This document shows, piece by piece, positions 37,547 through 62,575 of a stretch of 62,575 bases of DNA; the first letter of the stretch is position 1; every line of letters begins with the position of its first letter. The position numbers and the translations under genes are program-made. The stretch is from positions 1 through 62,575 of the forward strand of contig JBDRGH010000003.1 of assembly GCA_043818015.1 (NCBI GenBank). Direction: 5' to 3'. The stretch comes from Pseudomonadota bacterium. Lineage in GTDB: Bacteria > Desulfobacterota > UBA8473. The notes under the pieces are model-generated. The model was not told where the DNA came from, made no database searches, and saw nothing but the letters and a program-made list of their open reading frames with translations.

Positions 37547-37559
37547 CTCGTCCTCACTT

Positions 37560-44631: not shown

Positions 44632-45330
44632 CTACAAGAATCCCTTGACGTATCCGATCTCGAACGCCTCTGCCGCACTGAAGCCTATGCAGCTCCCCCT
44701 ATAGCCGGCCAGATCCAGCATCCCTTTGACTGACCTGGGATGCGGAGGCCCTTTGGCTTCCCCTTCATAACATTCGAAGGCTTGCAACTTCATCGGCAGG
44801 GTGTCCTCGATGTCCACGTACATCGTCGGATGGAAGAGGCGCTCGGAGCAGAACCTGTCCGTGGAGGACGGCATCTCGAAGAAGAACAGGCCCTTGCAGT
44901 CGGGAAATGCCTCCGGCCTGAAGACGGTCTGCACAGCTTGGGAAGTCATCTGGTGGTCTACGTTGAGGTCCCTTTGGAAGTGGGTGAAGACGTAGTCAGG
45001 AGGCCCCAAAGCTCCCACCCATCGCTCGATGGCTTTGACGATGGAGAGCATGGGTCCGGAATCGAAGCTGTTGTCGGGAAAGTCCTTAAAAGACAGGTTC
45101 TTGATCCCGAGTATCCTTGCCGCTTTCCTGCTCTGACGTTTCAGATCGGCCACCACGTCGTAACTGGCGCCATCCCGACTCATCTCTCCCTCTCCAAGGA
45201 TGAGGCAAGAGATTTCGTATTCCTCGGAATACTTCGCCATCGTCCCTCCGCAGCCGATCTCGTCGTCCGGATGGGCGACTATCACGAACATCTTGAACAT
45301 CGAATCTAACTCCTTCATACCTTTTGACAA
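44632..45330 (-). CDS. PIG-L/LmbE family deacetylase
   Basis: VIVAHPDDEIGCGG and NVDHQ motifs. Confidence 0.8.
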   Translation of the reverse strand: MSKGMKELDSMFKMFVIVAHPDDEIGCGGTMAKYSEEYEISCLILGEGEMSRDGASYDVVADLKRQSRKAARILGIKNLSFKDFPDNSFDSGPMLSIVKAIERWVGALGPPDYVFTHFQRDLNVDHQMTSQAVQTVFRPEAFPDCKGLFFFEMPSSTDRFCSERLFHPTMYVDIEDTLPMKLQAFECYEGEAKGPPHPRSVKGMLDLAGYRGSCIGFSAAEAFEIGYVKGFL

Positions 45331-45537
45331 AAACTTGAGTGCTTCCTTACCTTTTTCGGCTTATCAAAAATTTTTTTCTTGCAGTCCTTACAGATTACCA
45401 TATAATAAGAATACAAGCTGACCTTGTACTGACAATTCTTACTCTCGTCATTAACAGCAAGCTTTATCTTATAAACACCAGATTTAATCCTTTTATACTT
45501 CTGGCATGCAGGACAGTAAATGACTTCCGCATCAGAG

Positions 45538-46308
45538 TTAAGATTGATTCTTTCCGCTCTTCATCTCTTTTTTACCCACATTGTTTTCCGTCAGAATCTC
45601 CAGGCTTCTCGGCCCGTGGTTCAAGGCCAGATCCACCACGCTCATGTGCGCATGAAATTCTCCAGAAGTCTTCAACTGATGCTGTCCATATGCTGGATGC
45701 TGGTAATCCTGATACGCGATCTTTATTCCCGCCTTCTCAAACTTCTTTTCCTCCAGATAGCCTTTCCCTAACGTTCCACTGAAATAGATGTCCGCCTTCT
45801 CTCTCTGACAGATCTCCAAAACCAGATCGCTCTTCGTCCCGATGAGAGGCGGATCATAAGCGGAGCTCTTCTTGATCTCAGAATCTATCCCAAGCATCTT
45901 GCCCAGATAAACGGAAGAGAACTCCAGATTGGCGTCCAAGTCCTTCCAATCGAACACACGCATCAATCTGAACATCTCCCTCATCGCATGCCCGTGTTCG
46001 GGCTTGTCCCAGTAAGGAGACTTGGAATAGCACAGGCTAATCGAGCGGAGATGCTTATCCAGCCAGTTCACCCTTTCATCCACCAGAACCTTGCTGATCT
46101 GCTGCTTGGAATCGGCTTTGGTCAAGGCAGGAATCGTCAGCCACATCTCCCTTCCGTCAGGCTGGAGGATCCTGTTGCGATTAATGAAGCTGTTCTTTTC
46201 AAACTGGACCGTATTCAGTATGACAAAAATATCTGCAACAGACATCTTATGAAAATATCCAAGCCAAGGAATATAGGCTGGCTGGTGTATGGATATTATC
46301 TTAGTCAT
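45538..46308 (-). CDS. WbqC-like family protein
   Basis: IHQPAYIPWLGYFHKM...NTVQFEKNSFINRNRI N-terminal signature. Confidence 0.75.
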   Translation of the reverse strand: MTKIISIHQPAYIPWLGYFHKMSVADIFVILNTVQFEKNSFINRNRILQPDGREMWLTIPALTKADSKQQISKVLVDERVNWLDKHLRSISLCYSKSPYWDKPEHGHAMREMFRLMRVFDWKDLDANLEFSSVYLGKMLGIDSEIKKSSAYDPPLIGTKSDLVLEICQREKADIYFSGTLGKGYLEEKKFEKAGIKIAYQDYQHPAYGQHQLKTSGEFHAHMSVVDLALNHGPRSLEILTENNVGKKEMKSGKNQS

Positions 46309-46456
46309 TTTTTATTCCTCTTTTGAATATGAACCAATTCTCCAGTTCCAAAGTCTTCAACAAAGGCCTCCTGTTTTTAGGACAGCAGCCATACTTCTTC
46401 TGATATGTGATTATTGAGTTTATCCTTCTCACTCAATTTAAAGACAATCTTTTCCG

Positions 46457-46894
46457 TCATTTAAGCAGCCCAAAGACTCTTCTTTTGGTCTGCTTTATCT
46501 CAAACCGTCCCTTTTTCTCATCGAATAACATGTCCAGCAATCCAAGATCCAAGCTCTCTGATTGGAACATGCTAACTGTTTTGTTGAAGGCCTCTTGACA
46601 CAGTTCAGGAGACATGCCCATCCAATTTATGCAGTGCAGAGCACTCAATGCTTCATAATCATGAGCATCTGGCACAAAGGAAGTCAACTTCAAGCACTTG
46701 TCTATAGTACAGATGCTGAAATAAGTGCTTTTGAACATGTTCTTCAAAGCAGTTATCACCACTTCCTTAGTAAACTCGTCCATCTTTGTTCTTCCTTCTT
46801 TTCCCCAGACACTTCGTTTGCAGAAATAATAGCAGAACAGTTGGTGTGAAAGAGGCCAGCTATAGTACAAATTCTTGCTGTCTTTATCAGCCAA
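46457..46894 (-). CDS. hypothetical protein
   Basis: 145-aa track ORF. A later in-frame start (MDEFTKEV, ATG at 46783) is equally plausible. Confidence 0.35.
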   Translation of the reverse strand: MADKDSKNLYYSWPLSHQLFCYYFCKRSVWGKEGRTKMDEFTKEVVITALKNMFKSTYFSICTIDKCLKLTSFVPDAHDYEALSALHCINWMGMSPELCQEAFNKTVSMFQSESLDLGLLDMLFDEKKGRFEIKQTKRRVFGLLK

Positions 46895-46996
46895 AATACA
46901 TCATGAGATGCCATCACTTTTACATAGGCTAAATATGCCTTTTTTATTTGCTTTCTTATGGCTTTTTTCTTTCTTTGTTTTAACCATCTGGATTTT

Positions 46997-47599
46997 TTAT
47001 CTTCTGTTTTCTTTTCCATTTCTATATAGATGCATCATAAAAAAGTTTTTAGAAGTATCGTGTCTCAGACAAATGTATGGCGTCAACAGAAAGACAAAAG
47101 ACAGTATCTTACCAGCATCGAAATGATATTCACCCTTGCCGTCAGGAATAAGGGACTCTGCACTCAGGCAGTCGAATATCAGAAGTTCTCGCGTAACCAG
47201 CCAGGCTTCTTCTATCAGTTTCAAAGCCTCTCGGAAAGGATAAAGGTATAAGACGCCATTCATGATGATAATGTCGTGCATTGCAATAGGCATAGGCCAA
47301 GTACCTTGCAGGACATTTATTTCCATCTTCTCTTTTTCGACTTTTTCAACCACTTTTTCGGAGACATCCACCCCTAGATAATCGATGCTGGCAAAATAAT
47401 CATCCAGATAATCCTTCAGATCGCAGAAGCCACAACCTATGTCAAGCACGGATTTATAGTTAAAGTCTGTGGCCTCGGAGATCATCTTGAACTTCAACTC
47501 CTGCGATTCCTTGGAGCCATAGTCCAAGGCTTGGATCGAATGGCCATGCTTATCTATTAAGTAGTCGAAAAAACACCCAACATTTTTCATATTCCGCAT
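46997..47599 (-). CDS. class I SAM-dependent methyltransferase
   Basis: Motif I VLDIGCGFCD, then YLGVDVS, and IIMNGVLYLY. Confidence 0.7.
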   Translation of the reverse strand: MRNMKNVGCFFDYLIDKHGHSIQALDYGSKESQELKFKMISEATDFNYKSVLDIGCGFCDLKDYLDDYFASIDYLGVDVSEKVVEKVEKEKMEINVLQGTWPMPIAMHDIIIMNGVLYLYPFREALKLIEEAWLVTRELLIFDCLSAESLIPDGKGEYHFDAGKILSFVFLLTPYICLRHDTSKNFFMMHLYRNGKENRR

Positions 47600-48017
47600 T
47601 CTCTGCTAAAAAGTTATGCTCCATAAAAAAATTTGCCCCTTCATAGCTATCCTCTTGTACACAAGCTTTGATTCTAACAATGCCTGGCCAAACTTTTTTT
47701 ACTTCTTCAATTCCTTGTTCTAATGCTTCAGAACCAAGCTTTCTATCTCTGTATTTCCCAAGTAAATAAATATGAACTTCGCAGAGAGCATCGTTTCTTT
47801 TCTCAAATCTGATATGGCCTATTAACTTTCTTTTATAGACGATTATGAATGGCAAACAAGAGAAGAACATTTCAGACAAACATTTTGAAAACCAATGATC
47901 ATGCTCCTCCCAAGACACTCCTTTTTGAGACAAAGAGTTCTCGATGATCTCCGGCAGGTTCCGCCACCCAAAAAGTAGCTCCCTATCTTCTTCTATTATC
48001 AGTCTGAGCTTGATCAT
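47550..48017 (-). CDS. GNAT N-acetyltransferase (PseH-like)
   Basis: LRLIIEEDRELLFGWRNLPEI...EEHDHWF N-terminus, as in PseH-type acetyltransferases. KYRDRKLGSEAL lies at the CoA-binding loop position. Confidence 0.65.
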   Translation of the reverse strand: MIKLRLIIEEDRELLFGWRNLPEIIENSLSQKGVSWEEHDHWFSKCLSEMFFSCLPFIIVYKRKLIGHIRFEKRNDALCEVHIYLLGKYRDRKLGSEALEQGIEEVKKVWPGIVRIKACVQEDSYEGANFFMEHNFLAENAEYEKCWVFFRLLNR

Positions 48018-48289
48018 CCTAACTTTACCTCTACTGGTATTGTGAAGACCATCTGCTTTCCCTGTTCTGTGAACTCTTCGGTGACTTGCGGCTTTTCCAG
48101 ACCCTCGTTAGCTGCTTTTAATATCACGGCACATTCATCGAGATTCCATCCCCTGCGATAATTCTTGACACTAAATCGATTTTCTTCTCCGACTTTTCTT
48201 GTTATCAAGATGAGAAAAGTACCTTCTTCAAGACACAACACAACATCTTTCTTTATCTCTTCCAGGATCTGGGAATTAAGCTTGTTCAT
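48014..48289 (-). CDS. hypothetical protein
   Basis: 91-aa ORF with 4-nt overlaps on both sides. Confidence 0.4.
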   Translation of the reverse strand: MNKLNSQILEEIKKDVVLCLEEGTFLILITRKVGEENRFSVKNYRRGWNLDECAVILKAANEGLEKPQVTEEFTEQGKQMVFTIPVEVKLG

Positions 48290-49209
48290 GCTGACTCCTT
48301 GTCCTTCTTGTAGAGAATCTCTTCAATATCATCTCTCATTTTACATAATTGTTTCAACTCCTCTGGATCAATACTGCATACTTGATCTGGTCCAGGAAGA
48401 GTTTTATCTAAGGTGAAATGTTTCTCAATGATTCTGGCGCCAAGAGACATAGCCACCACTGCCGCTGTTATCCCGATCGTGTGATCGGAGAAGCCTATAT
48501 ATGAATTCTCAAATATACTTTTAATCGGAGAAATTTCTAATTCTTCATACTCCCCTCCAATATTAACCTCTACTGAAGTTTTACTCTCTTTTATTTCACG
48601 CTTTGTCAAATTGATCCCTTTAAAAGTTTGTATACACTCAAAGAAATGCAATTTAGATGGTTTTACAGGATATTCGGAAATACAATATAACCAACTAATT
48701 TCCTCTTTATTAAATAAATCAATTCCTTTCTTAAAATGTAAATAATCTGGTTTGAAGTCAAATGAATATATATATCCATCACTAACAATTATAGGCTTTC
48801 CTTTAGTTATTATAGCTTTACAAAGCTCTTCATTTAAAGCATCGTCACTGGCTATCTTGTACCTGTCCACCCCAACGTCATCGAGCCAGCCCAGCCTCTC
48901 AAGATCACTCACCGATGCAAGGAAGTCAATGCCAGCCCTCTCGCATTCAGACTTTATCCAGAACACCTGCCTCCTGCCTAGCCTTGCGGCATATATGGCC
49001 TCCCATTCCAGCTTTGAAAACTTTTCAGGCTCTATAGGAGGGTCCCCGAAAACAGTCTTCGGATCGTACAGCTGGATCTTCACCGTGTCGGCCTTGCATT
49101 CCGCAGCCTTGTGGATCATGTCTCGAAGTAAGGAAGCATCACCACAGTGATTGATTCCTAATTCTGCAATTATTTCTATATGATGTTTCCTTTCCATATC
49201 CCACCTCAC
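48286..49209 (-). CDS. NeuB-family nonulosonic acid synthase (PseI/NeuB-like), no SAF domain
   Basis: IIAELGINHCGD...ADTVKIQ, KIASDD, and GFSDHTIG...GARIIEKHFTLDK motifs. There is an extra segment of about 40 aa before GFSDHT. The protein ends without the usual C-terminal SAF domain. Confidence 0.8.
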   Translation of the reverse strand: MRWDMERKHHIEIIAELGINHCGDASLLRDMIHKAAECKADTVKIQLYDPKTVFGDPPIEPEKFSKLEWEAIYAARLGRRQVFWIKSECERAGIDFLASVSDLERLGWLDDVGVDRYKIASDDALNEELCKAIITKGKPIIVSDGYIYSFDFKPDYLHFKKGIDLFNKEEISWLYCISEYPVKPSKLHFFECIQTFKGINLTKREIKESKTSVEVNIGGEYEELEISPIKSIFENSYIGFSDHTIGITAAVVAMSLGARIIEKHFTLDKTLPGPDQVCSIDPEELKQLCKMRDDIEEILYKKDKESA

Positions 49210-49556: not shown

Positions 49557-49853
49557 TCAGTGCTGCTCATGGATTGAAAACACAGAATACCAGTCTCCCA
49601 GCGTACCAACAAGTAGACGCATAAGGCTATCTTTAACGTGAAGATACCCCCCAAATGCCTCTGGAGATATATGAACAAACCAGCATTGCACAGGGGTTGT
49701 TTGTGGTTCTTCCCATTGAATAAACTCTACAAGAAAAGCAAAACCCCTACGCATTTTTACAATGCCCTCACTTGCCCGACCTAATTTACCATCATAATAC
49801 ACCAACACTTTATCATTCTTTTGTGTGTCAAAATCCACCTTACTCTCCCTCAA
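49557..49853 (-). CDS. hypothetical protein
   Basis: 98-aa ORF with a 4-nt overlap with the GT2 stop. Confidence 0.4.
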   Translation of the reverse strand: MRESKVDFDTQKNDKVLVYYDGKLGRASEGIVKMRRGFAFLVEFIQWEEPQTTPVQCWFVHISPEAFGGYLHVKDSLMRLLVGTLGDWYSVFSIHEQH

Positions 49854-50626
49854 TAGATAATATCATATGTTTCAACCAGATAATACCTAAAAAGACAGAT
49901 CAGATACCAGTACAGAGGCACCTGATCCTTCCATCTCCTTACGACCTCTCTGCTCTCCTTTCTCCTTCGTCTAACCTTAGAGATGACACTCCCCTCATGC
50001 ATTCTCAGAAAGCCCAAAGGGAAAGGAATATAGCCCACTTCTGTTTCATGGGCCAGCTTGAGTAGCAGATCCCAGTCATGTGAGATAGTGAGGCGAGCAT
50101 CATATCTATACTTCTTGATCAGATCAGTCCTCACCATAACGGAGCTATTTGGAATAAAGTTCTTGAAGAGCAAAAGTCGAAAGCAGTTGCCGTTGAAAGG
50201 TTTTGACAACTGAGACCACTTTTCCTTCCTGCCATTTATCAATAATAGATCATGATAACTTATCCCGACACCCAACCACTCCATAAATTTAACCTGTCTT
50301 TCCAGCTTCTCCCTTGACCAAAAATCATCAGAGTCCAGAAAAGCAGTATATTTCCCTTTTACCAGACCAAGACCTGCATTCCTCGGAGCAACTGGAGAGC
50401 CACTATTCTTTCGCAAAGACCACAAGATCAGATTGCTGTCAAACTGTTTGCTATTTATCCATTTCTCCCAGCTTTTTATGATGTCCGGAGTCTCATCAGT
50501 AGAGGCATCGTCTATGACGATCAGCTCCCAATGCTCATATGTCTGCTTCACCACGGAATCGATAGCATCTCCTATGTATTTGGCTCCATTATATACCGGC
50601 ATTATGATACTAACTTTTGGTTTCAT
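49850..50626 (-). CDS. family 2 glycosyltransferase
   Basis: VSIIMPVYNGAKYIGDAIDSVVKQTY..WELIVIDDASTD, followed by a DSDD motif. Confidence 0.85.
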   Translation of the reverse strand: MKPKVSIIMPVYNGAKYIGDAIDSVVKQTYEHWELIVIDDASTDETPDIIKSWEKWINSKQFDSNLILWSLRKNSGSPVAPRNAGLGLVKGKYTAFLDSDDFWSREKLERQVKFMEWLGVGISYHDLLLINGRKEKWSQLSKPFNGNCFRLLLFKNFIPNSSVMVRTDLIKKYRYDARLTISHDWDLLLKLAHETEVGYIPFPLGFLRMHEGSVISKVRRRRKESREVVRRWKDQVPLYWYLICLFRYYLVETYDIIY

Positions 50627-51804
50627 TCCAACAGCTCCTTGTAGAATTTCACATACCTTTTCATTGTTCTGTCGTAGGAATAATGCTCCTCAAAGATCCG
50701 CTGGGAGTTCATGCCCATCCTCTGCCTAGATGCCTTTTTCTCGATCAGATAGTCAATGCAGTCTCTCAACTGCTTCACCTCTCCTGGCTCGACAAGAAGG
50801 CCATTCATCCAATCCACAATCTGTTCAGCCATCCCAGCCACTTTGGTCCCGACGATAGGCTTGCCGAGACTCATCGCCTGCAAGACAAGGATCGGGAAGT
50901 CCTCGTGAGCGATGGATGGCTGAACATAGATGTCGCAGGCATTGATGTAGGAATAGCCGTCCTTGACGTTCTTTCTGAAAAAGACCGGCCTTATATCAAT
51001 AGACTCCACCATGAGAGCCAGCTCTTCTTTCCCTTCTCCCACCAGCAGCAAAACCACACCATTCCCGTGCTTCTGGACCAACTCTCTGAACGCTTTCAAT
51101 AAGTAGGTCTGTCCCTTTCTCTTTTCAAACACGCCCACACAGACAATCAAGACGTCCTCTGGAAGCACTCCCAAACTTTTCCTGACTTTCTCCCTGTCCA
51201 CCAGAAGCTGGCTGTGAATGGTGTTTGGCATGACTCTGAATGCAGGAGCACGATGCCAAAAAAGCTCTTTGATTTCGCGGCTCACCGCATGAGAAGCCGA
51301 CAGCATCACATCCACCTCCTGGCTCACGAAATTGTCCATCGGCTTCTCGATCAGCCTCTGGATGAAGTTCCTCTTTTTCGGGAGATTGTTGATGAAGTAA
51401 ACCACCTTTTTCACCTTTGCCATCCTGCCTGCCAGCACAGCTGCTTGACAGCTTATCGGCCCTGGATATCCTCCGCTATTTATCACAAGAATCTCTGGTC
51501 TTATCTGCTTCAGCAGTTTATAGATCTTTATTGCATCAAAAGGCACACAAACATATTTAACCATGCGAAAAAGCTTATTCCCATAAAATCTAGAACTGAG
51601 CAATTTTAACGGAAAATAAGGGCACTCAGCACCGGCTATATTCCACCACCAAAGCATGACACGCTCAAACTCCTCTCGATAGGCAAAACTAAAAGAAATC
51701 TGAAAATTCTCCTTTATAAGAGCACTCGCAAATAGGCAAGTGAGCATTTGCTCAGAGCCACCACAGCGAAGATTGTCTGTATAATAGTGAATTTTATTTT
51801 TCAT
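50623..51804 (-). CDS. GT-B glycosyltransferase (Glycos_transf_1, GT4-type)
   Basis: C-terminal EDFPILVLQAMSLGKPIVGTKVAGMAEQIVDWMNGLLVEPGE (E-x7-E region). Confidence 0.85.
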   Translation of the reverse strand: MKNKIHYYTDNLRCGGSEQMLTCLFASALIKENFQISFSFAYREEFERVMLWWWNIAGAECPYFPLKLLSSRFYGNKLFRMVKYVCVPFDAIKIYKLLKQIRPEILVINSGGYPGPISCQAAVLAGRMAKVKKVVYFINNLPKKRNFIQRLIEKPMDNFVSQEVDVMLSASHAVSREIKELFWHRAPAFRVMPNTIHSQLLVDREKVRKSLGVLPEDVLIVCVGVFEKRKGQTYLLKAFRELVQKHGNGVVLLLVGEGKEELALMVESIDIRPVFFRKNVKDGYSYINACDIYVQPSIAHEDFPILVLQAMSLGKPIVGTKVAGMAEQIVDWMNGLLVEPGEVKQLRDCIDYLIEKKASRQRMGMNSQRIFEEHYSYDRTMKRYVKFYKELLE

Positions 51805-54231: not shown

Positions 54232-54644
54232 CCTATAAATGGCCTATTTTTAACCCATTGCCTATTAGCTTCCTTTTGAACAATTAAACAGACTTGCTTC
54301 TTCCCTTCTTCACTTTCTAGATATTCCTTTGTGATCCTTTTTATATCTTTCGCTCCTTGCTTACTAAAGTCCGTTTTTATTATTACATCGCTCTTTGCGT
54401 TTTCTAGTTGCTTTTCAGCCCTCTCATACACCTCCTCAGAGACATACGGAAGCTCCGAGAATCCACTGAGGGAATAGCCGATGAGCATGGCAAACTGCTC
54501 CCGATCCTCATCCGAAAAAGGCATATTTACAATTTGGTTCAAGTCATATGAACCGGCATTCAGCAAAAATCTGACAATTGCGTTCTCCTTAAAACGTGCA
54601 ATTCCCTCATCATCAGTAAAAACAGGTTGTATTGGTCTCATCAC
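54228..54644 (-). CDS. hypothetical protein
   Basis: 138-aa ORF with 4-nt overlaps on both sides (ATGA at 54228-54231, checked). Confidence 0.45.
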   Translation of the reverse strand: MMRPIQPVFTDDEGIARFKENAIVRFLLNAGSYDLNQIVNMPFSDEDREQFAMLIGYSLSGFSELPYVSEEVYERAEKQLENAKSDVIIKTDFSKQGAKDIKRITKEYLESEEGKKQVCLIVQKEANRQWVKNRPFIG

Positions 54645-54922
54645 AGATCTCCCATCTTGTTTTTGCCATCAATGTAGAGCATCTCGGGCCTCTCCACCGC
54701 TGGCAGCCTCATTGTAATCTTCAGCCGCTTCATCATCTTCCAGACTCCCATCTGGGTGATTCCCACCAGATTGGCTATGTCATAGACGCTACGGCCGCCA
54801 TCGTACAGGTCTTGGAACATTCCGGTCACCGTGCTGTATCCCATCTTGTCCGCCTTCTCCTTCCACCTGAGATAGACCTTAGGATACTTGAAAAGCCTTG
54901 CTTCTTGCTCTGACGTCATCAT
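54641..54922 (-). CDS. HTH DNA-binding protein
   Basis: 93 aa. SVYDIANLVGITQMGVWKMMKRL is HTH-like. Confidence 0.45.
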   Translation of the reverse strand: MMTSEQEARLFKYPKVYLRWKEKADKMGYSTVTGMFQDLYDGGRSVYDIANLVGITQMGVWKMMKRLKITMRLPAVERPEMLYIDGKNKMGDL

Positions 54923-54971
54923 CTCCTCTTATTTAGATTATAACTTATTTTTATCGATTTTTAAAACATTT

Positions 54972-55748
54972 TTACTTCTTTGCCTGCCTCCTCAGCAAGG
55001 ACTGAAAATCAGAAGAGCCGAAGTCTGGCAGCAAAGTGGTCCTACACGGCTGATAGCTGATAAATGTCTCTGCGTACTCAAAGCCATACTGCCTGCCCCA
55101 CTCTTTCTCCATGGAATTGAGCCGCGACCACACCACGTCCTTGGTGTTGTACTGACTCGGCATCGATATGAACGCCACTGCCTTCTTCTCTATCACTTTC
55201 GTAATGTCCACGACCACGTCTGGAGGCACCACGTTCCTACCCAACTTCACCATGTTCGGATGGAACTGGTAGCCATAGAAGAACACGTTCGAGACTCGAC
55301 AAGGCTCAAAACCCTCCATCTCGACATACCTTCCAGCAGCCACCGAAGCCTCCATGCTCTGCTGTCCTATGTAGGAATGGTCTGGATGATGGCTTTCTGC
55401 CGGATGATGGGTGACAAGAACGTCTGGTCGAACCTTGCTGATGATTTCTGCTATTGGCTTTCTGTGCAGGATTCCAGGATCAAAAAAGATTCCATCATCA
55501 AAGCCGAGAAAAGATCTGTTCTCTTTTTTCACATCGAGGACGTCCAATGCATCCTGGCACTCATCTATTTTAGCTCTCTCAAACTCACCTATGTTTGACA
55601 TCTGCTCTTTTGATAATGGATGAGAAAAAACACCTAAAGTCACTGCCATAATAAAGACTTCATCTCCAGCTTCGATGTGGTTGGCTATGGTGCCAGCAGC
55701 CAGGTCGATCAAATCAGCCGGATGTGCACCCACAAATAAAAGTTTCAT
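54972..55748 (-). CDS. PIG-L/LmbE family deacetylase
   Basis: LFVGAHPADLIDLAAG and VTHHPAESHHPDH motifs. Confidence 0.8.
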   Translation of the reverse strand: MKLLFVGAHPADLIDLAAGTIANHIEAGDEVFIMAVTLGVFSHPLSKEQMSNIGEFERAKIDECQDALDVLDVKKENRSFLGFDDGIFFDPGILHRKPIAEIISKVRPDVLVTHHPAESHHPDHSYIGQQSMEASVAAGRYVEMEGFEPCRVSNVFFYGYQFHPNMVKLGRNVVPPDVVVDITKVIEKKAVAFISMPSQYNTKDVVWSRLNSMEKEWGRQYGFEYAETFISYQPCRTTLLPDFGSSDFQSLLRRQAKK

Positions 55749-55825
55749 TCTATCTCTCCTCTATTAAAAATTATTATTAATTTATGTCTCCTTTTTGAAT
55801 TTCATTTTCATCATGGTTTATTTCT

Positions 55826-56521
55826 TTATTTTATCCCTCCTTTTTCTAAAAGTTTCCTCGCAAAAAATTCTGCCAATTCAAAATCAACCTCTGTGTTTAT
55901 GTCGATTGATCGTTCATATGGCATCTGTAAGACTCCCAATTCATTGAGATACCAGGTCTTCTGCTCCAGAAAAGCACCCACCTTCGCCCAGTACATAGAG
56001 CCATTTCCGACAACTCTCAGGCCTACAGCCTCTATCAGCTGCTCTTCCCTAAGATCGAATAACTTCATACTCTCTGGCTTCCACATATTCATTTTGTTCT
56101 TATAGAGAGCCTGCCACCATGGCTGTACGAATTTGGTAACTCCCATCACCCCTTCAAACCCCATCCTCAGCATGTGCCTGTATGCCATCTCGATGTCCGC
56201 AGCCGTCCTCATGGGAGCGGTCACATACAAGCAGCAAAAGTTGTCGAACTTTCCCAAAACTTCTTTACCCAAGATGTGCTCACATACCTGAACAAGGGTG
56301 CATCTGTTCTTTGCCATAGAGTTGTGCCACCAAAGGACATTGCTCTCTGTATACATTTCCCATTCTTCGATATTAGAATAAAGCAAGATGACATCGAAGC
56401 AGCCGCTCTGTTTGGCAGCCTCGATGGTCCATTCCACGATCGGCCTGCCCAAAAAATCCCTCGTGTTCTTATTTAGACACCTGCTGCTGTATCTCTTGGC
56501 CGGTATGATCGCCAGGTTCAT
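55826..56521 (-). CDS. acylneuraminate cytidylyltransferase family (CMP-nonulosonic acid synthetase, PseF/NeuA-like)
   Basis: N-terminal LAIIPAKRYSSRCLNKNTRDFLGRPIVEWTIEAA signature. Confidence 0.85.
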   Translation of the reverse strand: MNLAIIPAKRYSSRCLNKNTRDFLGRPIVEWTIEAAKQSGCFDVILLYSNIEEWEMYTESNVLWWHNSMAKNRCTLVQVCEHILGKEVLGKFDNFCCLYVTAPMRTAADIEMAYRHMLRMGFEGVMGVTKFVQPWWQALYKNKMNMWKPESMKLFDLREEQLIEAVGLRVVGNGSMYWAKVGAFLEQKTWYLNELGVLQMPYERSIDINTEVDFELAEFFARKLLEKGGIK

Positions 56522-56552
56522 AATTACCCTCCTCTAATGGATAGAATGTTAA

Positions 56553-56915
56553 CTATTGAATTGACTGTAATCGCTTAAGCTCTGCCTCAGCTTTCCCGAT
56601 CTCTAAAAGCGTTTTATTGAGTTTCTCCAGCAGACCTGGATCGTCCGGATATTTAGCCAGCATCAGCCTGATCTCCATCTCCATCTTTTGCCAATAATAA
56701 AGCTTGTCGTAGGTCCTCTGAATCTGCGTCTGCTTCTGGATACCCTGGATCGCTTTGGTTGTCTTGTCCATGCACAGCTCGTGGTACTCCTTAGTTACAA
56801 AGTGAGCATCTACCGCCCAGATGCCAGCCAGCAAAGCAAGGACAATAATCATTCCACTCATAACTTTCTTCATCAAATTATTTTTTTGCCCCTTTGTCAT
56901 CTCTTTTCCTCCCAA
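56553..56915 (-). CDS. membrane-anchored coiled-coil protein
   Basis: 120 aa with one TM helix (MSGMIIVLALLAGIWAV), then helical charged sequence. Confidence 0.4.
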   Translation of the reverse strand: MGGKEMTKGQKNNLMKKVMSGMIIVLALLAGIWAVDAHFVTKEYHELCMDKTTKAIQGIQKQTQIQRTYDKLYYWQKMEMEIRLMLAKYPDDPGLLEKLNKTLLEIGKAEAELKRLQSIQ

Positions 56916-57946
56916 ATTAAAGACTCGTTTGGATTCTCAAGCTCCTGAGCAAGAAAATCATGAGGTGTATAATCTTCAAAAAGCCGTCCACTCTGTAAAA
57001 AGCATTTCAGCTTAAGCACTCCCTCTTCGACTGTAGAAAAAGATTGCAGACAGTTGCCAAAAAGATCCTTGACTCCCACCTTCAGAGGGATGCTCTTCTC
57101 ATGATACAGGCACAAGACCGGCTTTCCTGCTCCTATTGCCTCAAAGAAGGCTGTCGATCCGACATCGACCACTATCGCATCAGCCTCTCTAAAATATTTC
57201 TGCTTACTTCTCTTCACCCATCTCATCCTCTTCATGTCCGACGTTTCCGATTCAAAATGCCTCACCATCAGATTTGGCTTCTCTCGATCCAGCCGTGGAT
57301 CATGGCACCAGGTAACTCTGCATCCGGAGGAGACGAACGTCTCCCAAAATGCCAAATTGTACACATGCCTCTCCTCGTTGCTGAGCAAGCATCCAGAAAC
57401 GTGCACACGGTCAGAAGGATGGTTGAACATCGGAATATACAAGAGCTTCTTAATCCTCTGTCCAGGAGAAAACGTGGTTTTTTTTGGCAGATGTCTGTTG
57501 AACTTCCTTATCTCTGCCCTCCCTCCAAATTCACGGAAATACCTCCTGTTGAATTCATTGGGGATATATAAATACTCATAATCATCGACGAGCCCTTTGC
57601 GATCCGAATGATGGAAAATGTCGCAGCCGTGCATGACATAGCTCACTGGAATGCCAAACTTTTGAGCAGCCAGGACAGCGGCATTTATCTCTATATTCGA
57701 TTCCCTTTCTATCACCAGAAAATCAATCCTCTTTTTCTCTCTAAAATATCTCACCCACTTCCCATAATGTCCATAAAAGCGAGGCCAATACTCCTTCTCC
57801 ATCTTGACAAGGTCTTCGAAGTCGAGCATCTGCCAGCCGTCCTTAAGATCCACCAGCTTGAAGATGGACCAATGCCCCCTCAGAAAAGCTCTCTTAGCAT
57901 AGAATCGTAAGTGCCTACTTGCGGGAAGGAAGAGTATCCTGTTCAT
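56897..57946 (-). CDS. GT-B-like glycosyltransferase/hydrolase-like protein, function unknown
   Basis: I prefer the start at MNRILFLP, whose ATG overlaps the PseB-like TGA (ATGA at 57943-57946, checked). C-terminal ADAIVVDVGSTAFFEAIGAGKPVLCL resembles GT-B nucleotide-sugar-binding regions (PseG-, capsule- or Maf-type). Confidence 0.45.
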   Translation of the reverse strand: MNRILFLPASRHLRFYAKRAFLRGHWSIFKLVDLKDGWQMLDFEDLVKMEKEYWPRFYGHYGKWVRYFREKKRIDFLVIERESNIEINAAVLAAQKFGIPVSYVMHGCDIFHHSDRKGLVDDYEYLYIPNEFNRRYFREFGGRAEIRKFNRHLPKKTTFSPGQRIKKLLYIPMFNHPSDRVHVSGCLLSNEERHVYNLAFWETFVSSGCRVTWCHDPRLDREKPNLMVRHFESETSDMKRMRWVKRSKQKYFREADAIVVDVGSTAFFEAIGAGKPVLCLYHEKSIPLKVGVKDLFGNCLQSFSTVEEGVLKLKCFLQSGRLFEDYTPHDFLAQELENPNESLIWEEKR

Positions 57947-58929
57947 ATCAGCTTCCTTATCATCTTTCTCAATTCTCCAGCTGTCACTTGCCATTCATTG
58001 GTCTGCGAAGTGTAAGACTGTCCAATCGTCACTCCAGAAGGTTTAAACCTATCTCCGTCAAAAAATTTCAGGCCTGGCAAGATCATGAAGAAATCTCCCA
58101 TGTCAAAAGCCCTTTCGACTTCACTGGGAGAGACAAGAACTTCATGCAACTTTTCTCCAGGCCTGATCCCTGTGTAATCGATCCGATAACCCTTTGTTTC
58201 GTCACTAGTTGCAAGTGCCAAAGAGAGAACCGGACTGCTGGACATCTTCGGGACAAAGATCTCTCCTCCTTCCATCTCCTCGGCATGATTCAGAACAAAC
58301 TTAACTGCATCTGTAATAGTTATCCAGAACCGTGTCATCCTACTGTCCGTCACTCTGAAATAACCCTCTTCTTTCTGTTTCAGAAATATCGGCAACACAC
58401 TCCCTCTGCTGCCCAACACATTCCCGTATCTTACTACGGAAAACTTTGGCCCCAAAGTATTGGCAGCGACGAACAACTTTTCGGCAGTCAGTTTAGTGGC
58501 TCCATAAAGATTAATGGGATCAACAGCCTTATCCGAAGAAAGAGCAATCACCCTTTCAATCTTTCTTTCAACGGCCACTTCGATAATGTTCTGTGCTCCA
58601 AGTACATTTGTCTTCACCGCTTCACTTGGATTATACTCGCAAATTGGAATCTGCTTCATGGCTGCCGCATGAATGACGAGGTCCATACCTTTAAAAGCCA
58701 GAGACAACTTCGATTTATCCCTGACGTCGCCGATGAAATATCGCATTATTGACTTCTCTTCATGGGTATCCGGCCATCGTTTCTGCATCTCATACTGTTT
58801 ATCCTCACCCCTACTCAAGATGGCTATCCTTCTCGGCCCCATGGTCTGCAAGACTTTGGCACACTCCTGGCCAAAAGTACCAGTGCCTCCCGTAATCAAG
58901 ATACTCTTGTCCTTGTAAAAGCTATCCAT
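57943..58929 (-). CDS. pseB: UDP-N-acetylglucosamine 4,6-dehydratase (PseB/FlaA1/CapD-like)
   Basis: ILITGGTGTFGQ, FIGDVRD, IHAAAMKQIPICEYNPSEAVKTNVLGAQN, LSSDKAVDPINLYGATKL and RYGNVLGSRGSV give a near-canonical Polysacc_synt_2 signature. Confidence 0.9.
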   Translation of the reverse strand: MDSFYKDKSILITGGTGTFGQECAKVLQTMGPRRIAILSRGEDKQYEMQKRWPDTHEEKSIMRYFIGDVRDKSKLSLAFKGMDLVIHAAAMKQIPICEYNPSEAVKTNVLGAQNIIEVAVERKIERVIALSSDKAVDPINLYGATKLTAEKLFVAANTLGPKFSVVRYGNVLGSRGSVLPIFLKQKEEGYFRVTDSRMTRFWITITDAVKFVLNHAEEMEGGEIFVPKMSSSPVLSLALATSDETKGYRIDYTGIRPGEKLHEVLVSPSEVERAFDMGDFFMILPGLKFFDGDRFKPSGVTIGQSYTSQTNEWQVTAGELRKMIRKLI

Positions 58930-59459: not shown

Positions 59460-60308
59460 CTACCTCCTTTCGCACACAACCATATACCCAGCCCATCTGT
59501 TTAGAGGACTGAATAAGGTCAGAACCTTCCGCAAGCCCATCCAGAAAGCCATGGTAAAAGGGAGAAGTGCTTTCTCGATCCTTGCCTTCTCTCCTTCCCA
59601 ATCCGACGTCCTGTGGTTGTACCATCTGCCCTTTCTCTGGGCAACAAAAGCCGCCAGGTTCCATCTGCTCTTAATCCAATAAAGCTCCTTGATCTCAAAG
59701 CCATATCTTCTCAACAGCTCTCGCATATTGAATGGATCGATCCAGCACACATGATCCGGATTCACAAGCTCATCAGACATCAGCCAGGCATAGACGAAAT
59801 TGTCCATGTAAAACGGGGTGGGTGTTGTCAGGATCAATTTTCCTTTTACCTTCAATAAATAAATACAATTGCATAAAAAGAATCTAATACTATCTAAATG
59901 TTCGATCAGATCAGCTGCTATAATCAGATCAAAAGACTCCCTTTCAACAGACTTTTTCGATCCATACCACAAAGGATATGTCAGATCTCCTCTAAAGCAA
60001 TTTGGAAGATTCGTGCTTTCCTTATAATTCAAATCTATCCCAATAAGCTTCTTTGAAACTTTTGCCAATTCCTCATGCAGAGGACTCTTCCCATATCCTT
60101 CCAACGTGTGGTTCAAGAAGCCAGCATCCAGCACCGCCTTTCCCTCCGCAAGAGCAACGATGGCATCCACCTTGTCGACTGCTTTCGCCTTCCTGATCTG
60201 CCTTAAAAAATCCTGCCTGTCCTGAGATAGCTCCATTTCCTCATCCGTCCTTTCATGTTTCTGATAAGTGAAAACCAAAGATTCGACCAGAGCCTTCCCA
60301 CGAACCAC
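59460..60308 (-). CDS. SAM-dependent methyltransferase-like protein
   Basis: VLDAGF..., LIGIDL, FDLIIAADLIEHLD and LKVKGKLILTTP patterns. The start is uncertain (alternative ATG at 60236). Confidence 0.6.
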   Translation of the reverse strand: MVRGKALVESLVFTYQKHERTDEEMELSQDRQDFLRQIRKAKAVDKVDAIVALAEGKAVLDAGFLNHTLEGYGKSPLHEELAKVSKKLIGIDLNYKESTNLPNCFRGDLTYPLWYGSKKSVERESFDLIIAADLIEHLDSIRFFLCNCIYLLKVKGKLILTTPTPFYMDNFVYAWLMSDELVNPDHVCWIDPFNMRELLRRYGFEIKELYWIKSRWNLAAFVAQRKGRWYNHRTSDWEGEKARIEKALLPFTMAFWMGLRKVLTLFSPLNRWAGYMVVCERR

Positions 60309-61702
60309 AGAATTGACTGGTTCTCTGCTCCAAGCAGATTGATCTTCGCTCTATAATACAGCTTGGTCTTGTTCGGCTGAACTGGCCTTTCAACGTCTCC
60401 AAAAAGATTCTTGATCCCGAGCCTTCTTGCCTCTCTGACGAATCGAAGAAAACGACTTTCTCTTATAGAATAGTTATTGTCTCTGGTGCTCCACAGCAGC
60501 GGGGTCTCTCCCAACTCAATCCCATACTTCTCTGGATGGCTGTATCCTTCACTCCCAGGAAAAAATCCACACAGGTTGAGCGCCGGATTGATCTGATAGA
60601 TGAAGTCCCTGTTGTCTCTTAGGAACTGCAAGGTCTCTTCAAAATCCTGTTCAGTCTCTCCCGGCAGACCAAACATGAAGTTGAGATTGACCTTGATTCC
60701 AGCAGCCCAAGCTTCTTTCACAATATCTGGAATATCCGTTCCATCGGCACTGTTCTTGCCTATGCTCTTCAGCAGCCTTAGTACGGGTGTTTCCAGTCCA
60801 TAGCCTATAAATGTGCAACCGGCATCCCTCATCTTGTTATACAAGGGATAGTGCATCTCCTTCCTGATCGTGGCATTGCCCATACTCCATTTCACCCTAC
60901 TACCCAGACCACTTTTTATCATCAGATCGCAAAAGTTGTTCAGCTCCTTAATGTTGCCATTGCTCACTGAGTCGTGAAAATGGAAGAAAAACACCTTTGA
61001 ATGCTGTGATAATTGATAAACCACTTCACCAAAAACTCTGGCTCCAGATCTATTTCTATAGAATCCTTCGTGCAATCCCCTCTCAGAGCAGAAGATGCAC
61101 TTGTTGATGCAACCTCTACTAAACCACAATGGCAGAGAGCCCGAATAATCGTACTTCCGTAAATCGAAATCGGAATAGTCTGGAAATGGAAGCTTGTCAA
61201 GCTTGACAAGATCATATTTAGAAGAAAGAAGGGACTCTCCTTCAGCACTATAGAAACCCTTTATTTCAGAAAAACTCTTTTTAACCTCAATGCCTTCCTG
61301 CTCAAACTCCCATATCTGTGGACCACCCAGGTAGATATCAGCGACTCCCTTCAGTTCCTTCACCAGCAAAGAGGTGAACAGAGAAGACGAGTTCTGGACG
61401 GTGATCCAGATCTCTTTTGGCTTCCACTCTGCAATCCTCTTCCTGTACGTCATTATGAAAAAATAAAAATCCCTGTAAAAATCCAGGACGTCTTTCTGAT
61501 TCTCGCAATGATTGTATCCCTCAGCAAGCCGCCAATACTTCCTGTATCTCCTACCTGCAAACTGATACAGCTCAATATTAAGGTCAAGACATTTTGTCTC
61601 CAGACCTACCTCGTTGGCTACTGCCTTCAGAGAAGCCAGTCCCAGAGGAGGAGTAGTTGTGCCCCAGAATGGCGGCTGTATAAATAAAACATCTAAAGGC
61701 AT
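60203..61702 (-). CDS. B12-binding domain radical SAM protein
   Basis: VLFIQPP...PPLGLASLKAVANEVG N-domain and FSRGCINKCIFCSE (CX3CX2C). Confidence 0.85.
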   Translation of the reverse strand: MPLDVLFIQPPFWGTTTPPLGLASLKAVANEVGLETKCLDLNIELYQFAGRRYRKYWRLAEGYNHCENQKDVLDFYRDFYFFIMTYRKRIAEWKPKEIWITVQNSSSLFTSLLVKELKGVADIYLGGPQIWEFEQEGIEVKKSFSEIKGFYSAEGESLLSSKYDLVKLDKLPFPDYSDFDLRKYDYSGSLPLWFSRGCINKCIFCSERGLHEGFYRNRSGARVFGEVVYQLSQHSKVFFFHFHDSVSNGNIKELNNFCDLMIKSGLGSRVKWSMGNATIRKEMHYPLYNKMRDAGCTFIGYGLETPVLRLLKSIGKNSADGTDIPDIVKEAWAAGIKVNLNFMFGLPGETEQDFEETLQFLRDNRDFIYQINPALNLCGFFPGSEGYSHPEKYGIELGETPLLWSTRDNNYSIRESRFLRFVREARRLGIKNLFGDVERPVQPNKTKLYYRAKINLLGAENQSILWFVGRLWSNLWFSLIRNMKGRMRKWSYLRTGRIF

Positions 61703-61812
61703 GGTAACCCCCTAATATTTTCCTCACTTTCTACCATATTAAGAAGACTTTTCTATGAAACTACATCCCTACCTTACCACACCAAACCTGACCGTACCGC
61801 ACCGGACCATAA

Positions 61813-62575
61813 TTAGAATCTATGTCTCCAATAAGACAGAAATGTCTTCGGTAGGTCGACGATCCATGCCAATGCATAGGCAAATTTGTGCCCAGAGCAT
61901 GCGACCGTCTTCCAGTACAAGGGATTGGCTGTCCACATCCTCTCAAACATAGGGAGCACCTTAAACTTCCTTCCGAGCCTGTTCCTCAGCTTGCGCAGAG
62001 CCAGACCATGAGCCGCCATCCGAAATCCTGCCTGTCCCTTCATGCTGGCGTCCTGCAGCAGATGATATTCTTCCTTCCGTAATCTTGGCATGACATATTC
62101 GTCGTAAATTTGGGTCCCTGGATACGGGGTGCAAACGGAGACGGCCACTCCGCAAGGTCTGATCTCTTTCAGAAAGGATTTCGTCTTCCCAATACTCCCT
62201 TCGGTCTCTCCCGGCATGTTGACCATCAAGGTGCCAAAAGCCCGTAGTCTGTATTTCCTGCACCATTCGAACGTTTGCCTTATCTGCTGGATGGAGATTT
62301 TTTTATTAACTTTATCCAGAACCTCTTGATCGCCACTCTCCACTCCCACGTCAAGCTGGATGCAGCCACTTTCCTTTAAATTTCCTATCAGATCCTCCGT
62401 AGCTACGTCCGCCCTCGTCTGACAACCATATGGGATCCTTCCTAAATCTTTATCAAGCATTCGCTTACTCTTGAACCATTCTTCCATCCATCTCTTATTC
62501 AACCCGAACATGTCGTCCGAGAAGTAGAAAAAGTCAATCCCATACCTTTCTTTGAGCTCTGCAATCTCTTTTATG
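61813..62575 (-). CDS. radical SAM protein, C-terminal part (5' end beyond the right edge)
   Basis: The frame stays open upstream of the track start to the window edge (IKEIAELKERYGIDFFYFSDDMFGLN...). GCIQLDVGVESGDQEVLD and MVNMPGET are typical radical SAM core strands. Confidence 0.75.
   Translation of the reverse strand, partial: IKEIAELKERYGIDFFYFSDDMFGLNKRWMEEWFKSKRMLDKDLGRIPYGCQTRADVATEDLIGNLKESGCIQLDVGVESGDQEVLDKVNKKISIQQIRQTFEWCRKYRLRAFGTLMVNMPGETEGSIGKTKSFLKEIRPCGVAVSVCTPYPGTQIYDEYVMPRLRKEEYHLLQDASMKGQAGFRMAAHGLALRKLRNRLGRKFKVLPMFERMWTANPLYWKTVACSGHKFAYALAWIVDLPKTFLSYWRHRF

Follow-up and report, generated by a model that had tools for sequence, protein, structure and literature searches.

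Why would a tailed bacteriophage carry a near-complete pathway for a bacterial surface sugar, and where would that sugar end up? Nonulosonic acids are major surface determinants of bacteria, with roles as phage receptors, as immune decoys and in flagellar assembly. The locus that raises the question lies on contig JBDRGH010000003.1, the whole of which (62,575 bases; hereafter the window) was analyzed; it is the entire deposited contig of an NCBI metagenome-assembled genome (MAG) labelled 'Pseudomonadota bacterium', so that no extension to the right is available, and its protein MFH1623606.1 bears the locus tag ABID54_00430. A preliminary description of the window placed a glycan island at 44632-62575, beside phage packaging genes, and listed in it a core of the pseudaminic acid (Pse) type together with genes for radical S-adenosylmethionine (SAM) enzymes, methyltransferases and deacetylases. 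The profiles uphold this gene content: in a profile-search check set beforehand, every named gene was present where it had been placed and its family was supported. On balance, our reading inclines toward a phage-borne, captured pathway for a cytidine monophosphate (CMP)-activated, tailored Pse-like sugar that would be used on the envelope of the infected cell rather than on virions.

Does the island sit in a phage at all? Every gene of the window lies on the minus strand, so the island does adjoin the packaging genes on the same strand, as had been said, and the 4-nt start/stop overlaps that had been called frequent are present at seven of its 20 junctions. The phage context itself is borne out by genes for portal, head morphogenesis, capsid, cement, tape measure, tail fibre J and the large terminase subunit (TerL) (Table 1). 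TerL, portal, HK97-type capsid and tape measure together in one operon constitute a tailed phage (Caudoviricetes) module, and positions 1-42 kb read as a siphovirus-type morphogenesis module. A megablast search against GenBank phages returned no close relative of the window, and its portal protein is only 24% identical to the portals of Rhodobacter and Bordetella phages. No integrase or repressor family was detected in any scanned open reading frame (ORF) of the window, the contig being part of a probable genome of 105-112 kb, and tRNA and Rfam scans of the window gave no match.

The island could instead be host chromosome flanking a prophage, or a bacterial sugar cluster misjoined to a phage contig. 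Such an origin would fit the binning of the contig into a bacterial MAG, the existence of close cellular counterparts of island genes, and a fall in GC content from 0.55 at 40-44.6 kb to 0.40-0.45 within the island. However, the compositional outlier is the TerL block at 40000-44631 (GC 0.55; tetranucleotide correlation 0.70-0.81 vs 0.86-0.94 among the other segments), whereas the tetranucleotide signature of the island correlates with the structural part at 1-30 kb at 0.87-0.93, the same as structural segments among themselves; four unrelated comparison loci (L035, L132, L088 and L011) gave 0.45-0.6. Sugar genes also occur inside the structural module, a radical-SAM gene lying between TerL and portal and an epimerase gene between portal and head-morphogenesis. 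Moreover, an independent ENA contig (L040) is 99.96% identical over 52631-62317 and ends inside the same gene as the window. Among relatives, the TerL-portal-head-capsid backbone recurs in 21 IMG/VR contigs (44-76% identity), several contigs of the lineage reach 105-112 kb, and genes for NeuB, B12-radical-SAM, GT2, WecA-like, PseB, PseF and PIG-L proteins lie upstream of TerL (L002/L044, L011/L042, L004/L046 and L038).

A further 14.7-kb JGI contig (L037) carries, in order, a short-chain dehydrogenase/reductase (SDR), GT4, GT2, radical SAM, WbqC, DegT, PIG-L, a NeuB without a SAF domain, and a GNAT acyltransferase, the identities to the window being 64-67% for the radical-SAM protein (in two extein halves, see below), 49% for WbqC, 48% for PIG-L and 49% for the SAF-less NeuB. 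After the GNAT gene it continues with homologues of window genes 44194-44589 and 43646-44137, which precede TerL, so that island genes are joined to the same small phage genes in both. With no tRNA or integrase found on the contig and one strand holding all genes with many overlaps, a chimeric assembly or prophage flank is unlikely, and we consider either origin very improbable. The island is best read as a genuine phage-resident glycan module of an uncultured siphovirus-like phage. Two 111-kb relatives (L038 and L039) were assigned to MAGs labelled Planctomycetota and 'uncultured archaeon', and phage contigs of this lineage have probably been mis-binned.

What would the island make? Equivalog models were taken from NCBIfam and judged against NCBI curated cut-offs, and domains against Pfam cut-offs. 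All four core calls of the preliminary description stand as family assignments. The PseB-like protein matches TIGR03589 over its full length (4.6e-115; 384 bits, cut-off 407.75; the runner-up, FnlA, scores 231 bits) and is 48% identical to the PseB-like protein of an Omnitrophota cluster described below. The cytidylyltransferase aligns with the PseF model TIGR03584 from residue 3 to 219 of 231 (103 bits, cut-off 205.7), and the best specific model for the protein of GNAT fold is PseH (2.4e-10; 40.7 bits, cut-off 93.1). The synthase, confirmed as lacking a SAF domain, scores 163 bits with the NeuB equivalog (cut-off 400) and 138 bits with PseI (cut-off 340), keeps the metal and substrate motifs GFSDHT, EKHFTLD and GPD, and has as its closest solved structure 6ncs, a SAF-less NeuB of 290 aa (2.5e-30). 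At residues ~198-228 it bears a 31-aa insertion (CIQTFKGINLTKREIK...GGEYEE) that is not in five related viral NeuB sequences. Since these equivalog scores fall under their cut-offs, the exact sugar, whether Pse, legionaminic acid (Leg) or another, is not fixed.

Two steps lack an evident gene. The PseC-type aminotransferase had been noted as missing from the window, and indeed no DegT domain was found in the scanned ORFs and tblastn with two DegT queries gave no match in any frame. The contig terminates inside the island, and the DegT gene of L037 indicates that the aminotransferase missing here exists in a related phage island. Likewise, no PseG was recognisable on the contig, and the GT-B-fold protein described below has no specific PseG similarity. 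With substrates and step order drawn from family membership, the pathway would begin with 4,6-dehydration of UDP-N-acetylglucosamine by the PseB-like enzyme, and continue with a 4-aminotransferase encoded beyond the contig end or supplied by the host, N-acylation by the PseH-like GNAT, and release of UDP, for which the GT-B protein is one candidate. The SAF-less synthase would then condense the sugar with phosphoenolpyruvate, and the PseF-like enzyme would activate the resulting nonulosonic acid with CMP. The module probably makes a CMP-activated 5,7-diamino-nonulosonic acid of the Pse type. Like the Pse pathway of Campylobacter and Helicobacter (PseB, PseC, PseH, PseG, PseI and PseF), the island clusters PseB-, PseH-, NeuB/PseI- and PseF-like genes; unlike that pathway, it has no PseC, recognisable PseG or SAF domain and four scores under equivalog cut-offs, and the phage adds four radical-SAM genes, two methyltransferases, two PIG-L genes and a WbqC-like gene.

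Table 1 Features of the window, in order of position; values are E-values unless given in bits.
Feature	Coordinates	Strand	Evidence
WecA/MraY-family polyprenyl-phosphate sugar-1-phosphate transferase, 266 aa, ~7 transmembrane segments	1268..2068	-	Glycos_transf_4 1.5e-34
SDR sugar 4,6-dehydratase/epimerase-like enzyme	2072..3028	-	GDP_Man_Dehyd 3e-48; Epimerase 6e-48
Tail fibre J-like protein	6545..10684	-	7e-36
Tape measure protein	12551..14989	-	2e-61
Wzy_C-family (O-antigen ligase / polymerase / O-oligosaccharyltransferase type) polytopic membrane protein, 650 aa	24486..26438	-	Wzy_C 2.7e-14
HK97-type capsid protein	30812..31978	-	Phage_capsid_4 9e-15
SPP1-gp7-like head morphogenesis protein	35541..36614	-	PHROG 1e-54
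GalE-like NAD-dependent sugar epimerase	36611..37606	-	Epimerase 1.1e-57; PHROG 540 1.9e-75
Portal	37560..38996	-	phrog_21 5.6e-37
Fourth B12-binding radical-SAM enzyme, 469 aa from ATG at 40441	39032..40441	-	B12-binding 9.6e-27; Radical_SAM 1.9e-21
TerL	40435..42216	-	phrog_5653 5e-6 (weak PHROG match); Walker A ANRTGGKT; conserved synteny
PIG-L/LmbE de-N-acetylase 1	44632..45330	-	PIG-L 2.2e-20
WbqC-like protein (uncharacterised polysaccharide-cluster family)	45538..46308	-	WbqC 4.1e-59
145-aa ORF	46457..46894	-	no family match
SAM methyltransferase 1	46997..47599	-	Methyltransf_25 2.4e-6, 28.6 bits (cut-off 27)
GNAT N-acyltransferase, PseH-like	47550..48017	-	Acetyltransf_1 1e-7, 32.6 bits (cut-off 20.7)
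91-aa ORF, possible regulator (not established)	48014..48289	-	weak zinc-finger match, ROS_MUCR 2.2e-4, 21.7 bits (cut-off 25.4)
NeuB/PseI-type nonulosonate synthase without SAF	48286..49209	-	NeuB 9.3e-49, 166.5 bits (cut-off 22.1)
98-aa ORF	49557..49853	-	no family match
GT2 glycosyltransferase	49850..50626	-	Glycos_transf_2 1.6e-32
GT4 (GT-B) glycosyltransferase	50623..51804	-	Glycos_transf_1 5e-33
B12-binding radical-SAM precursor, 779 aa	51892..54231	-	B12-binding 1.4e-20; Intein_splicing 1.7e-19; Radical_SAM 1.2e-14; HNH_3
Class-1 intein, 321 aa, with HNH endonuclease (aa 216-536 of the precursor)	52624..53586	-	Intein_splicing 70.6 bits (cut-off 35.8)
Two small ORFs (54641-54922 and 54228-54644), translationally coupled by 4-nt overlaps	54228..54922	-	no significant family match
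PIG-L/LmbE de-N-acetylase 2	54972..55748	-	PIG-L 3.2e-21; BshB1 model 1e-21, under cut-off
PseF-like CMP-nonulosonate cytidylyltransferase	55826..56521	-	CTP_transf_3 2e-8; TIGR03584 1.4e-29
120-aa protein, one predicted transmembrane helix (hydrophobic aa 22-40)	56553..56915	-	no family match
GT-B-fold protein, 349 aa (ATG giving a 4-nt overlap with the PseB-like gene)	56897..57946	-	predicted structure
PseB-like UDP-GlcNAc 4,6-dehydratase (inverting type, first committed step)	57943..58929	-	Polysacc_synt_2 2.8e-92
SAM methyltransferase 2	59460..60308	-	Methyltransf_23 7e-9
Radical-SAM enzyme b, 499 aa, class-B-like	60203..61702	-	Radical_SAM 2e-13; CINKCIFC at aa 198
Radical-SAM enzyme c, C-terminal 253-aa fragment	61813..62575	-	Radical_SAM 5e-17

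The feature that sets the island apart from the classical pathway is its radical-SAM enzymes. Three had been described as B12-binding; the radical-SAM assignment holds for all three, whereas a B12-binding domain was seen only in the largest (73.8 bits, cut-off 32.1). That protein had been taken for one long enzyme, and an intein had been overlooked: the gene is oversized because 321 residues interrupt it, and the predicted spliced product has 458 aa. The junctions read GCPFN/CLRGDTLL...TSDH...LVHN/CFFCYH (slashes mark the splice sites), and the insert has the marks of an intein in Cys1, the block B motif TSDH (residues 68-71), the C-terminal HN and a +1 Cys. Its HNH_3 match is 21.1 bits, under the cut-off of 24.8, and its repeats, read from sequence, look like NUMOD motifs of homing endonucleases. 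The insertion separates the first Cys of the CX3CX2C motif from the second, which doubles as the +1 nucleophile; the motif is not intact in the 779-aa precursor and is reformed as CPFNCFFC after predicted splicing. Homologues without the intein align to both flanks of the insert; a search with the spliced extein gave 3946 homologues, and of the top 120 only the window's own protein contains an intein. This position within the Fe-S motif implies that one radical-SAM enzyme would be active only after splicing. A literature search found no paper on inteins in radical-SAM motifs.

The other enzymes of this class are recognised by different routes. In enzyme b Pfam detects no B12-binding domain; its NCBIfam matches are solely to B12-radical-SAM families and it aligns over its full length to a B12-radical-SAM protein of the Omnitrophota cluster, so that membership in class B is assigned from full-length similarity. 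Enzyme c is truncated by the contig end, with its CX3CX2C motif and B12 region beyond it, and matches the HpnJ (5.6e-26) and AprD4 (6.8e-20) models, both under cut-off; full-length B12-binding homologues at 43-50% identity lie upstream of TerL in L002, L011, L038 and L046. The fourth enzyme, outside the island range, has a B12-binding domain at 93.7 bits (cut-off 32.1), the motif CPWNCIFC and a match to the Sden_1168 family of NCBIfam (4.7e-86; 289 bits, cut-off 575), and its gene, between TerL and portal, runs a few bases into the end of TerL. Among solved structures the closest are 9ccb, an uncharacterised protein, and AprD4 (6fd2) for the intein-bearing enzyme (~1e-14 each), and AprD4 again for the fourth (1.4e-25). 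AprD4 tailors an aminoglycoside sugar, and a carbohydrate-modifying enzyme as best solved relative supports a link between these enzymes and a sugar pathway; it differs in that identity is low, family models score under cut-off, and the enzymes here would have to work on nonulosonate precursors in nucleotide-activated form, a substrate class that to our knowledge is not a known one. AprD4 is reported not to bind cobalamin, and the class B enzymes GenK and GenD1 tailor aminoglycoside sugars in pathways of a kind that also contain a PIG-L-type deacetylase.

Do the radical-SAM enzymes belong to the nonulosonate pathway, or are they co-located with it by chance? The closest named cellular homologues of the spliced enzyme, among the best 120 of 3946, are from Candidatus Omnitrophota (46-48% identity). 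In the complete Omnitrophota genome CP070837.1 (L035) a homologue 44-50% identical over the two extein segments lies within a pse-like cluster whose order is DegT, SDR, a 769-aa protein, B12-radical-SAM, PseB-like, DegT, a 376-aa protein, methyltransferase, B12-radical-SAM (the homologue), CTP_transf_3, GNAT, NeuB with SAF, a 627-aa protein, B12-radical-SAM, Wzx flippase and a GT4-methyltransferase fusion. Radical-SAM decoration is therefore no invention of the phage; the placement of this gene argues for a cellular design that the phage lineage carries in rearranged form, and none of the other evidence ties the radical-SAM enzymes more strongly to the nonulosonate pathway. The two clusters, both known from sequence, have in common the Pse-type core, a methyltransferase, a GT4 and several genes of the B12-radical-SAM type. 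The cellular cluster differs in encoding DegT aminotransferases and a Wzx flippase, in a NeuB that carries the SAF domain, and in lacking the intein. In the phage version the genes are ordered differently, and WbqC and PIG-L are present in addition. Cellular nonulosonic-acid clusters like that of Omnitrophota are the most likely source from which the phage module was captured. By the similarity of its cargo genes, Omnitrophota is a lead as to the host.

A rather improbable alternative is that the radical-SAM, methyltransferase and deacetylase genes are just neighbors of the core and serve another target, which could be a second sugar of the glycan or else a lipid, cofactor or peptide. This would be in keeping with the best NCBIfam matches of the radical-SAM enzymes, which include P-methyltransferase, HpnJ (hopanoid), BchE and RiPP families with none over cut-off, with the position of the fourth gene apart from the island and beside TerL, and with the retention of a gene of the enzyme c type in a relative (L038) that has few visible sugar genes nearby. 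Yet the Omnitrophota homologue sits between a methyltransferase and a cytidylyltransferase of a pse-like operon, radical-SAM genes repeatedly adjoin GT2, WbqC, PIG-L, PseF and NeuB genes in phage islands, and no precursor peptide or lipid-pathway gene was found among the scanned ORFs. We therefore lean, if modestly, toward re-tailoring of the nonulosonate itself by the four class-B-type radical-SAM enzymes, the two methyltransferases, the two PIG-L enzymes and the WbqC-like protein, which might for example add C-methyl groups, remove oxygen, or remove or replace N-acyl groups.

The remaining assignments of the preliminary description in the island also hold, including two PIG-L/LmbE deacetylases, a WbqC-like protein, two SAM methyltransferases (the first barely over its cut-off), and GT2 and GT4 glycosyltransferases (Table 1). 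The WbqC-like gene has its 49% identical homologue in L037 next to the radical-SAM gene; no PDB relative was found for the protein, and a literature search gave nothing useful on its function. The listed start of the second methyltransferase overlaps the upstream gene by 106 nt, which suggests that the true start is probably further downstream, and the call in the independent contig L040 is 258 aa. The GT2 has homologues at 44-47% identity upstream of TerL in related phage contigs. Of the small ORFs, 54641-54922 has a 45% identical homologue in L037.

The protein that had been called GT-B-like has no significant sequence match in Pfam, NCBIfam, PHROG or the PDB; the call is supported by predicted structure. 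AlphaFold with an alignment of 60 sequences gave a mean confidence score (pLDDT) of 92.2 (47.6 with three sequences), and Foldseek matched the model to SenB, PglA, GT4, MurG and BshA (E 3e-8 to 1e-6, TM-score ~0.5) and also to viral GT-B glycosyltransferases. The modelled fold is thus GT-B, and the protein is a candidate glycosyltransferase or PseG-type UDP-sugar hydrolase. Its family is rare (245 representatives in an exhaustive profile search), and the arrangement with PseF and PIG-L is kept in L022. Distant relatives form the C-terminal halves of putative transferases of ~620 aa, and one such protein, which matches PF27859 (LIC12162) weakly, is encoded in a polysaccharide locus; no link of LIC12162 to the Leptospira nonulosonic-acid cluster was found in the paper examined, and the family profile gave no significant match to any protein of the Omnitrophota cluster. 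A flagellin transferase of the Maf or FlmG type was considered for this family and rejected: 25 relatives have no Pfam domain except for one DUF6716 match.

Where is the sugar placed? The answer depends on genes outside 44632-62575, to which the glycan system turns out not to be confined. Besides the fourth radical-SAM gene, the GalE-like epimerase (TIGR01179 1.2e-59; 202 bits, cut-off 262) lies between portal and head-morphogenesis; the closest relative, L001, lacks both genes at these sites, which suggests that they entered the packaging and head module recently. The SDR enzyme has LegB as its best NCBIfam model (159 bits, cut-off 475), and the WecA/MraY-family transferase matches WecA and MraY models at 1e-16 to 1e-19, under cut-offs, with a 37% identical homologue adjoining NeuB in L002. 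These two genes form a pair at the far left end of the window (1268-3028), downstream of the tail genes. The Wzy_C-family protein (53.7 bits, cut-off 31.7) has ~10-12 hydrophobic segments and a PQPRECHNDWLE block, conserved with the L020 homologue, that corresponds to the His-containing loop of the family (ECHNDWLE); sequence does not decide which of the three Wzy_C activities it has. A single-sequence search found no relatives, whereas a two-sequence alignment found 11 full-length homologues, all syntenic in related viral contigs (L121-L131), in the order capsid, variable region, Wzy_C, head-tail genes, tail tube and tape measure.

Enzymes of the WecA-like and Wzy_C families have as substrates polyprenyl-linked glycans at or beyond the membrane. 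The presence of both on the contig favors a lipid-linked extracytoplasmic glycoconjugate over virion decoration, and the synteny of Wzy_C in 11 contigs was counted toward an envelope target. Assembly would then involve the GT2, GT4 and GT-B proteins, the WecA-like initiating transferase and the lineage-conserved Wzy_C enzyme, after which the glycan, linked to a lipid carrier, would be moved onto the envelope outside the cytoplasm. This polyprenyl-linked route ending on the envelope of the infected cell, again drawn from family membership, is put forward tentatively, at slightly less than even confidence. This target is the least certain part of the reading; its consequence would be late masking of receptors or a remodelling akin to serotype conversion. 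No lysogeny genes were seen, and receptor masking by late expression is accordingly a proposal rather than an observation. The specific combination in which a chemically new nonulosonic acid, C-methylated, deoxygenated or rearranged in some other way by radical-SAM enzymes, is deployed late by Wzy_C through a lipid-linked extracytoplasmic step, and either masks receptors on dying cells and their debris or decorates particles outside the cytoplasm, is doubtful.

Virion glycosylation is an alternative that we regard as unlikely, though a serious competitor: the cytoplasmic GT2, GT4 and GT-B proteins would decorate capsid, cement or tail proteins, with shielding or altered adsorption as the result. 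The glycan genes lie within the late morphogenesis operon, translationally coupled to TerL and PseB-type neighbours, and tandem paralogues of surface proteins (31996-32499 and 32511-33038; the trio at 28843-30541) could serve as acceptors. There is precedent in the C-terminal glycans of Mycobacterium phage capsid and tail-tube proteins (Freeman et al. 2023, as cited in PMC12619734), and dedicated transferases are described as adding nonulosonic acids to flagellins in the cytoplasm. However, the WecA-like and Wzy_C enzymes would be out of reach of virion assembly in the cytoplasm, protein nonulosonate transferases of the Maf or FlmG type were not detected, and the capsid protein had no noticeable tails rich in Ser or Thr. 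A quite different target would be the phage genome. It is very unlikely that the sugars hypermodify phage DNA in the manner of glycosylated hydroxymethyl- or hydroxy-pyrimidines. Glycosylated 5-hydroxycytosine is the subject of a published paper; yet the contig, which does not include the replication module, gave no match to families of pyrimidine hydroxymethylases, thymidylate-synthase-like enzymes or DNA glycosyltransferases, and we know of no DNA-modification role for CMP-nonulosonate pathways or for polyprenyl-phosphate and Wzy_C enzymes. Phage glycosyltransferases that put diverse glycans on DNA are known (Pyle et al. 2024, as cited in PMC12619734).

Several observations weigh against an envelope-directed Pse-type pathway. 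Neither a PseC-type aminotransferase nor a recognisable PseG is on the contig, and the PseB, PseF, PseH and PseI equivalogs all score under the curated cut-offs. The best families of the radical-SAM enzymes are scattered over P-methyltransferases, HpnJ, BchE, RiPP methylases and AprD4, all under cut-off, and their chemistry is not readable from sequence. No flippase was found on the contig. The glycan genes lie in or beside late structural operons, a location no less compatible with virion decoration than with classical lysogenic conversion, and neither an integrase nor lysogeny genes were seen. The presence of a periplasm-facing Wzy_C enzyme as a syntenic member of the virion operon is left unexplained by an envelope target. 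A promoter and terminator scan of the window gave the same counts as shuffled sequence, and the MAG labels within the phage lineage (Pseudomonadota, Planctomycetota and archaeon) disagree, so that the host is not given by them.

How does the envelope-directed pathway compare with glycan cargo known from other phages? The serotype-converting phages D3 of Pseudomonas and epsilon15 of Salmonella are temperate and carry O-antigen polymerase and transferase genes in small modules near the lysogeny genes. They resemble the present case in joining a phage Wzy-family membrane enzyme with glycosyltransferases that alter the host surface glycan, and differ in that here Wzy_C is syntenic in the head-tail operon across the lineage and is accompanied by a whole sugar pathway. 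A precedent for an envelope target comes from Acinetobacter baumannii, in which the prophage genes epaA and epaB convert Pse to 8-epi-Pse in the capsule (PMC12053666). Both systems are phage-carried enzymes that re-tailor a Pse-type sugar, theirs ending in a host surface polysaccharide (PMC12053666); EpaA/EpaB are the products of two genes acting on host-made Pse in a lysogen, whereas the window holds a near-complete pathway in an apparently non-integrated, uncultured phage. Virion glycosylation in mycobacteriophages likewise ties glycosyl- and methyltransferases to structural genes, and neither nonulosonic acids nor radical-SAM, polyprenyl-phosphate or Wzy_C components are mentioned in the passage of PMC12619734 that describes it.

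Is the cargo unusual, as had been claimed? Measured against identified cultured phages it is: of 50,697 GenBank phage records, three have NeuB relatives (an uncultured phage, a single-cell-amplified marine virus and a Moritella viscosa contig), none being an identified cultured phage, and six have PseB-like genes, among them unannotated Staphylococcus and Listeria records that are suspected of holding host DNA. Measured against IMG/VR it is not, since at least 245 contigs there have a NeuB relative. Within 10 kb on either side of the NeuB gene in the best 80 of these loci, PseB-like genes were counted in 28, DegT in ~18, PseF-like in 13, B12-radical-SAM in 12 and PIG-L in ~12. A Pfam census of 66 accessory ORFs of related contigs returned asparagine synthases, GT2, B12-radical-SAM, NeuB, Glycos_transf_4 and CTP_transf_3, as well as a sulfotransferase and homing-endonuclease motifs. 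The asparagine-synthase genes number three (one with a glutamine amidotransferase domain) and the sulfotransferase gene one; the former might be amidotransferases of the kind that makes acetamidino-nonulosonates. Literature searches turned up neither an account of a Pse-type pathway in a phage nor one of radical-SAM genes within nonulosonic-acid clusters.

Some further features of the lineage were observed. Among the accessory ORFs of related phages NUMOD3, HNH and HNH_repeat are common, and the TerL, portal and head-morphogenesis genes are split by inserts of 1-1.6 kb (L003 4340-7204; L010 2521-4530; L020 3035-5440; L004 11887-14582), which suggests that inteins or homing endonucleases are frequent in the lineage. 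In the structural part of the window, 31996-32499 and 32511-33038 are tandem paralogues of the Phage_cement_2 type, of which relatives carry two to three copies; 28843-30541 holds a trio of ~182-aa Gly/Thr-rich paralogues with the N-terminus MARKKTR, and 15750-16976 a pair of ~200-aa paralogues upstream of the tape measure gene. Between 42.2 and 43.6 kb there are only dubious ORFs and no Rfam match.

The nonulosonic-acid cargo of this phage lineage is real, recurrent and apparently undescribed, and it builds on known phage glycan cargo and on known nonulosonic-acid biosynthesis. Cases of phage involvement found so far are small, such as the two-gene EpaA/EpaB module, whereas here a near-complete and heavily tailored pathway is recurrent cargo of an uncultured lineage, with a clear counterpart in Omnitrophota. 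The locus defines a gene set for learning how radical-SAM enzymes act on nonulosonic acids, a chemistry that we did not find described in the literature, and provides a natural instance of an intein interrupting the CX3CX2C motif of such an enzyme. It also carries a warning, in that such phage contigs end up in unrelated MAGs, where they are annotated as sugar clusters of bacteria. Moreover, it offers a test case for whether phages of lytic type remodel the host envelope or glycosylate their own particles. If a new, radical-SAM-modified nonulosonic acid is indeed deployed late by Wzy_C, this would represent an unrecognised phage strategy in which the intein would make one tailoring step conditional on protein splicing.

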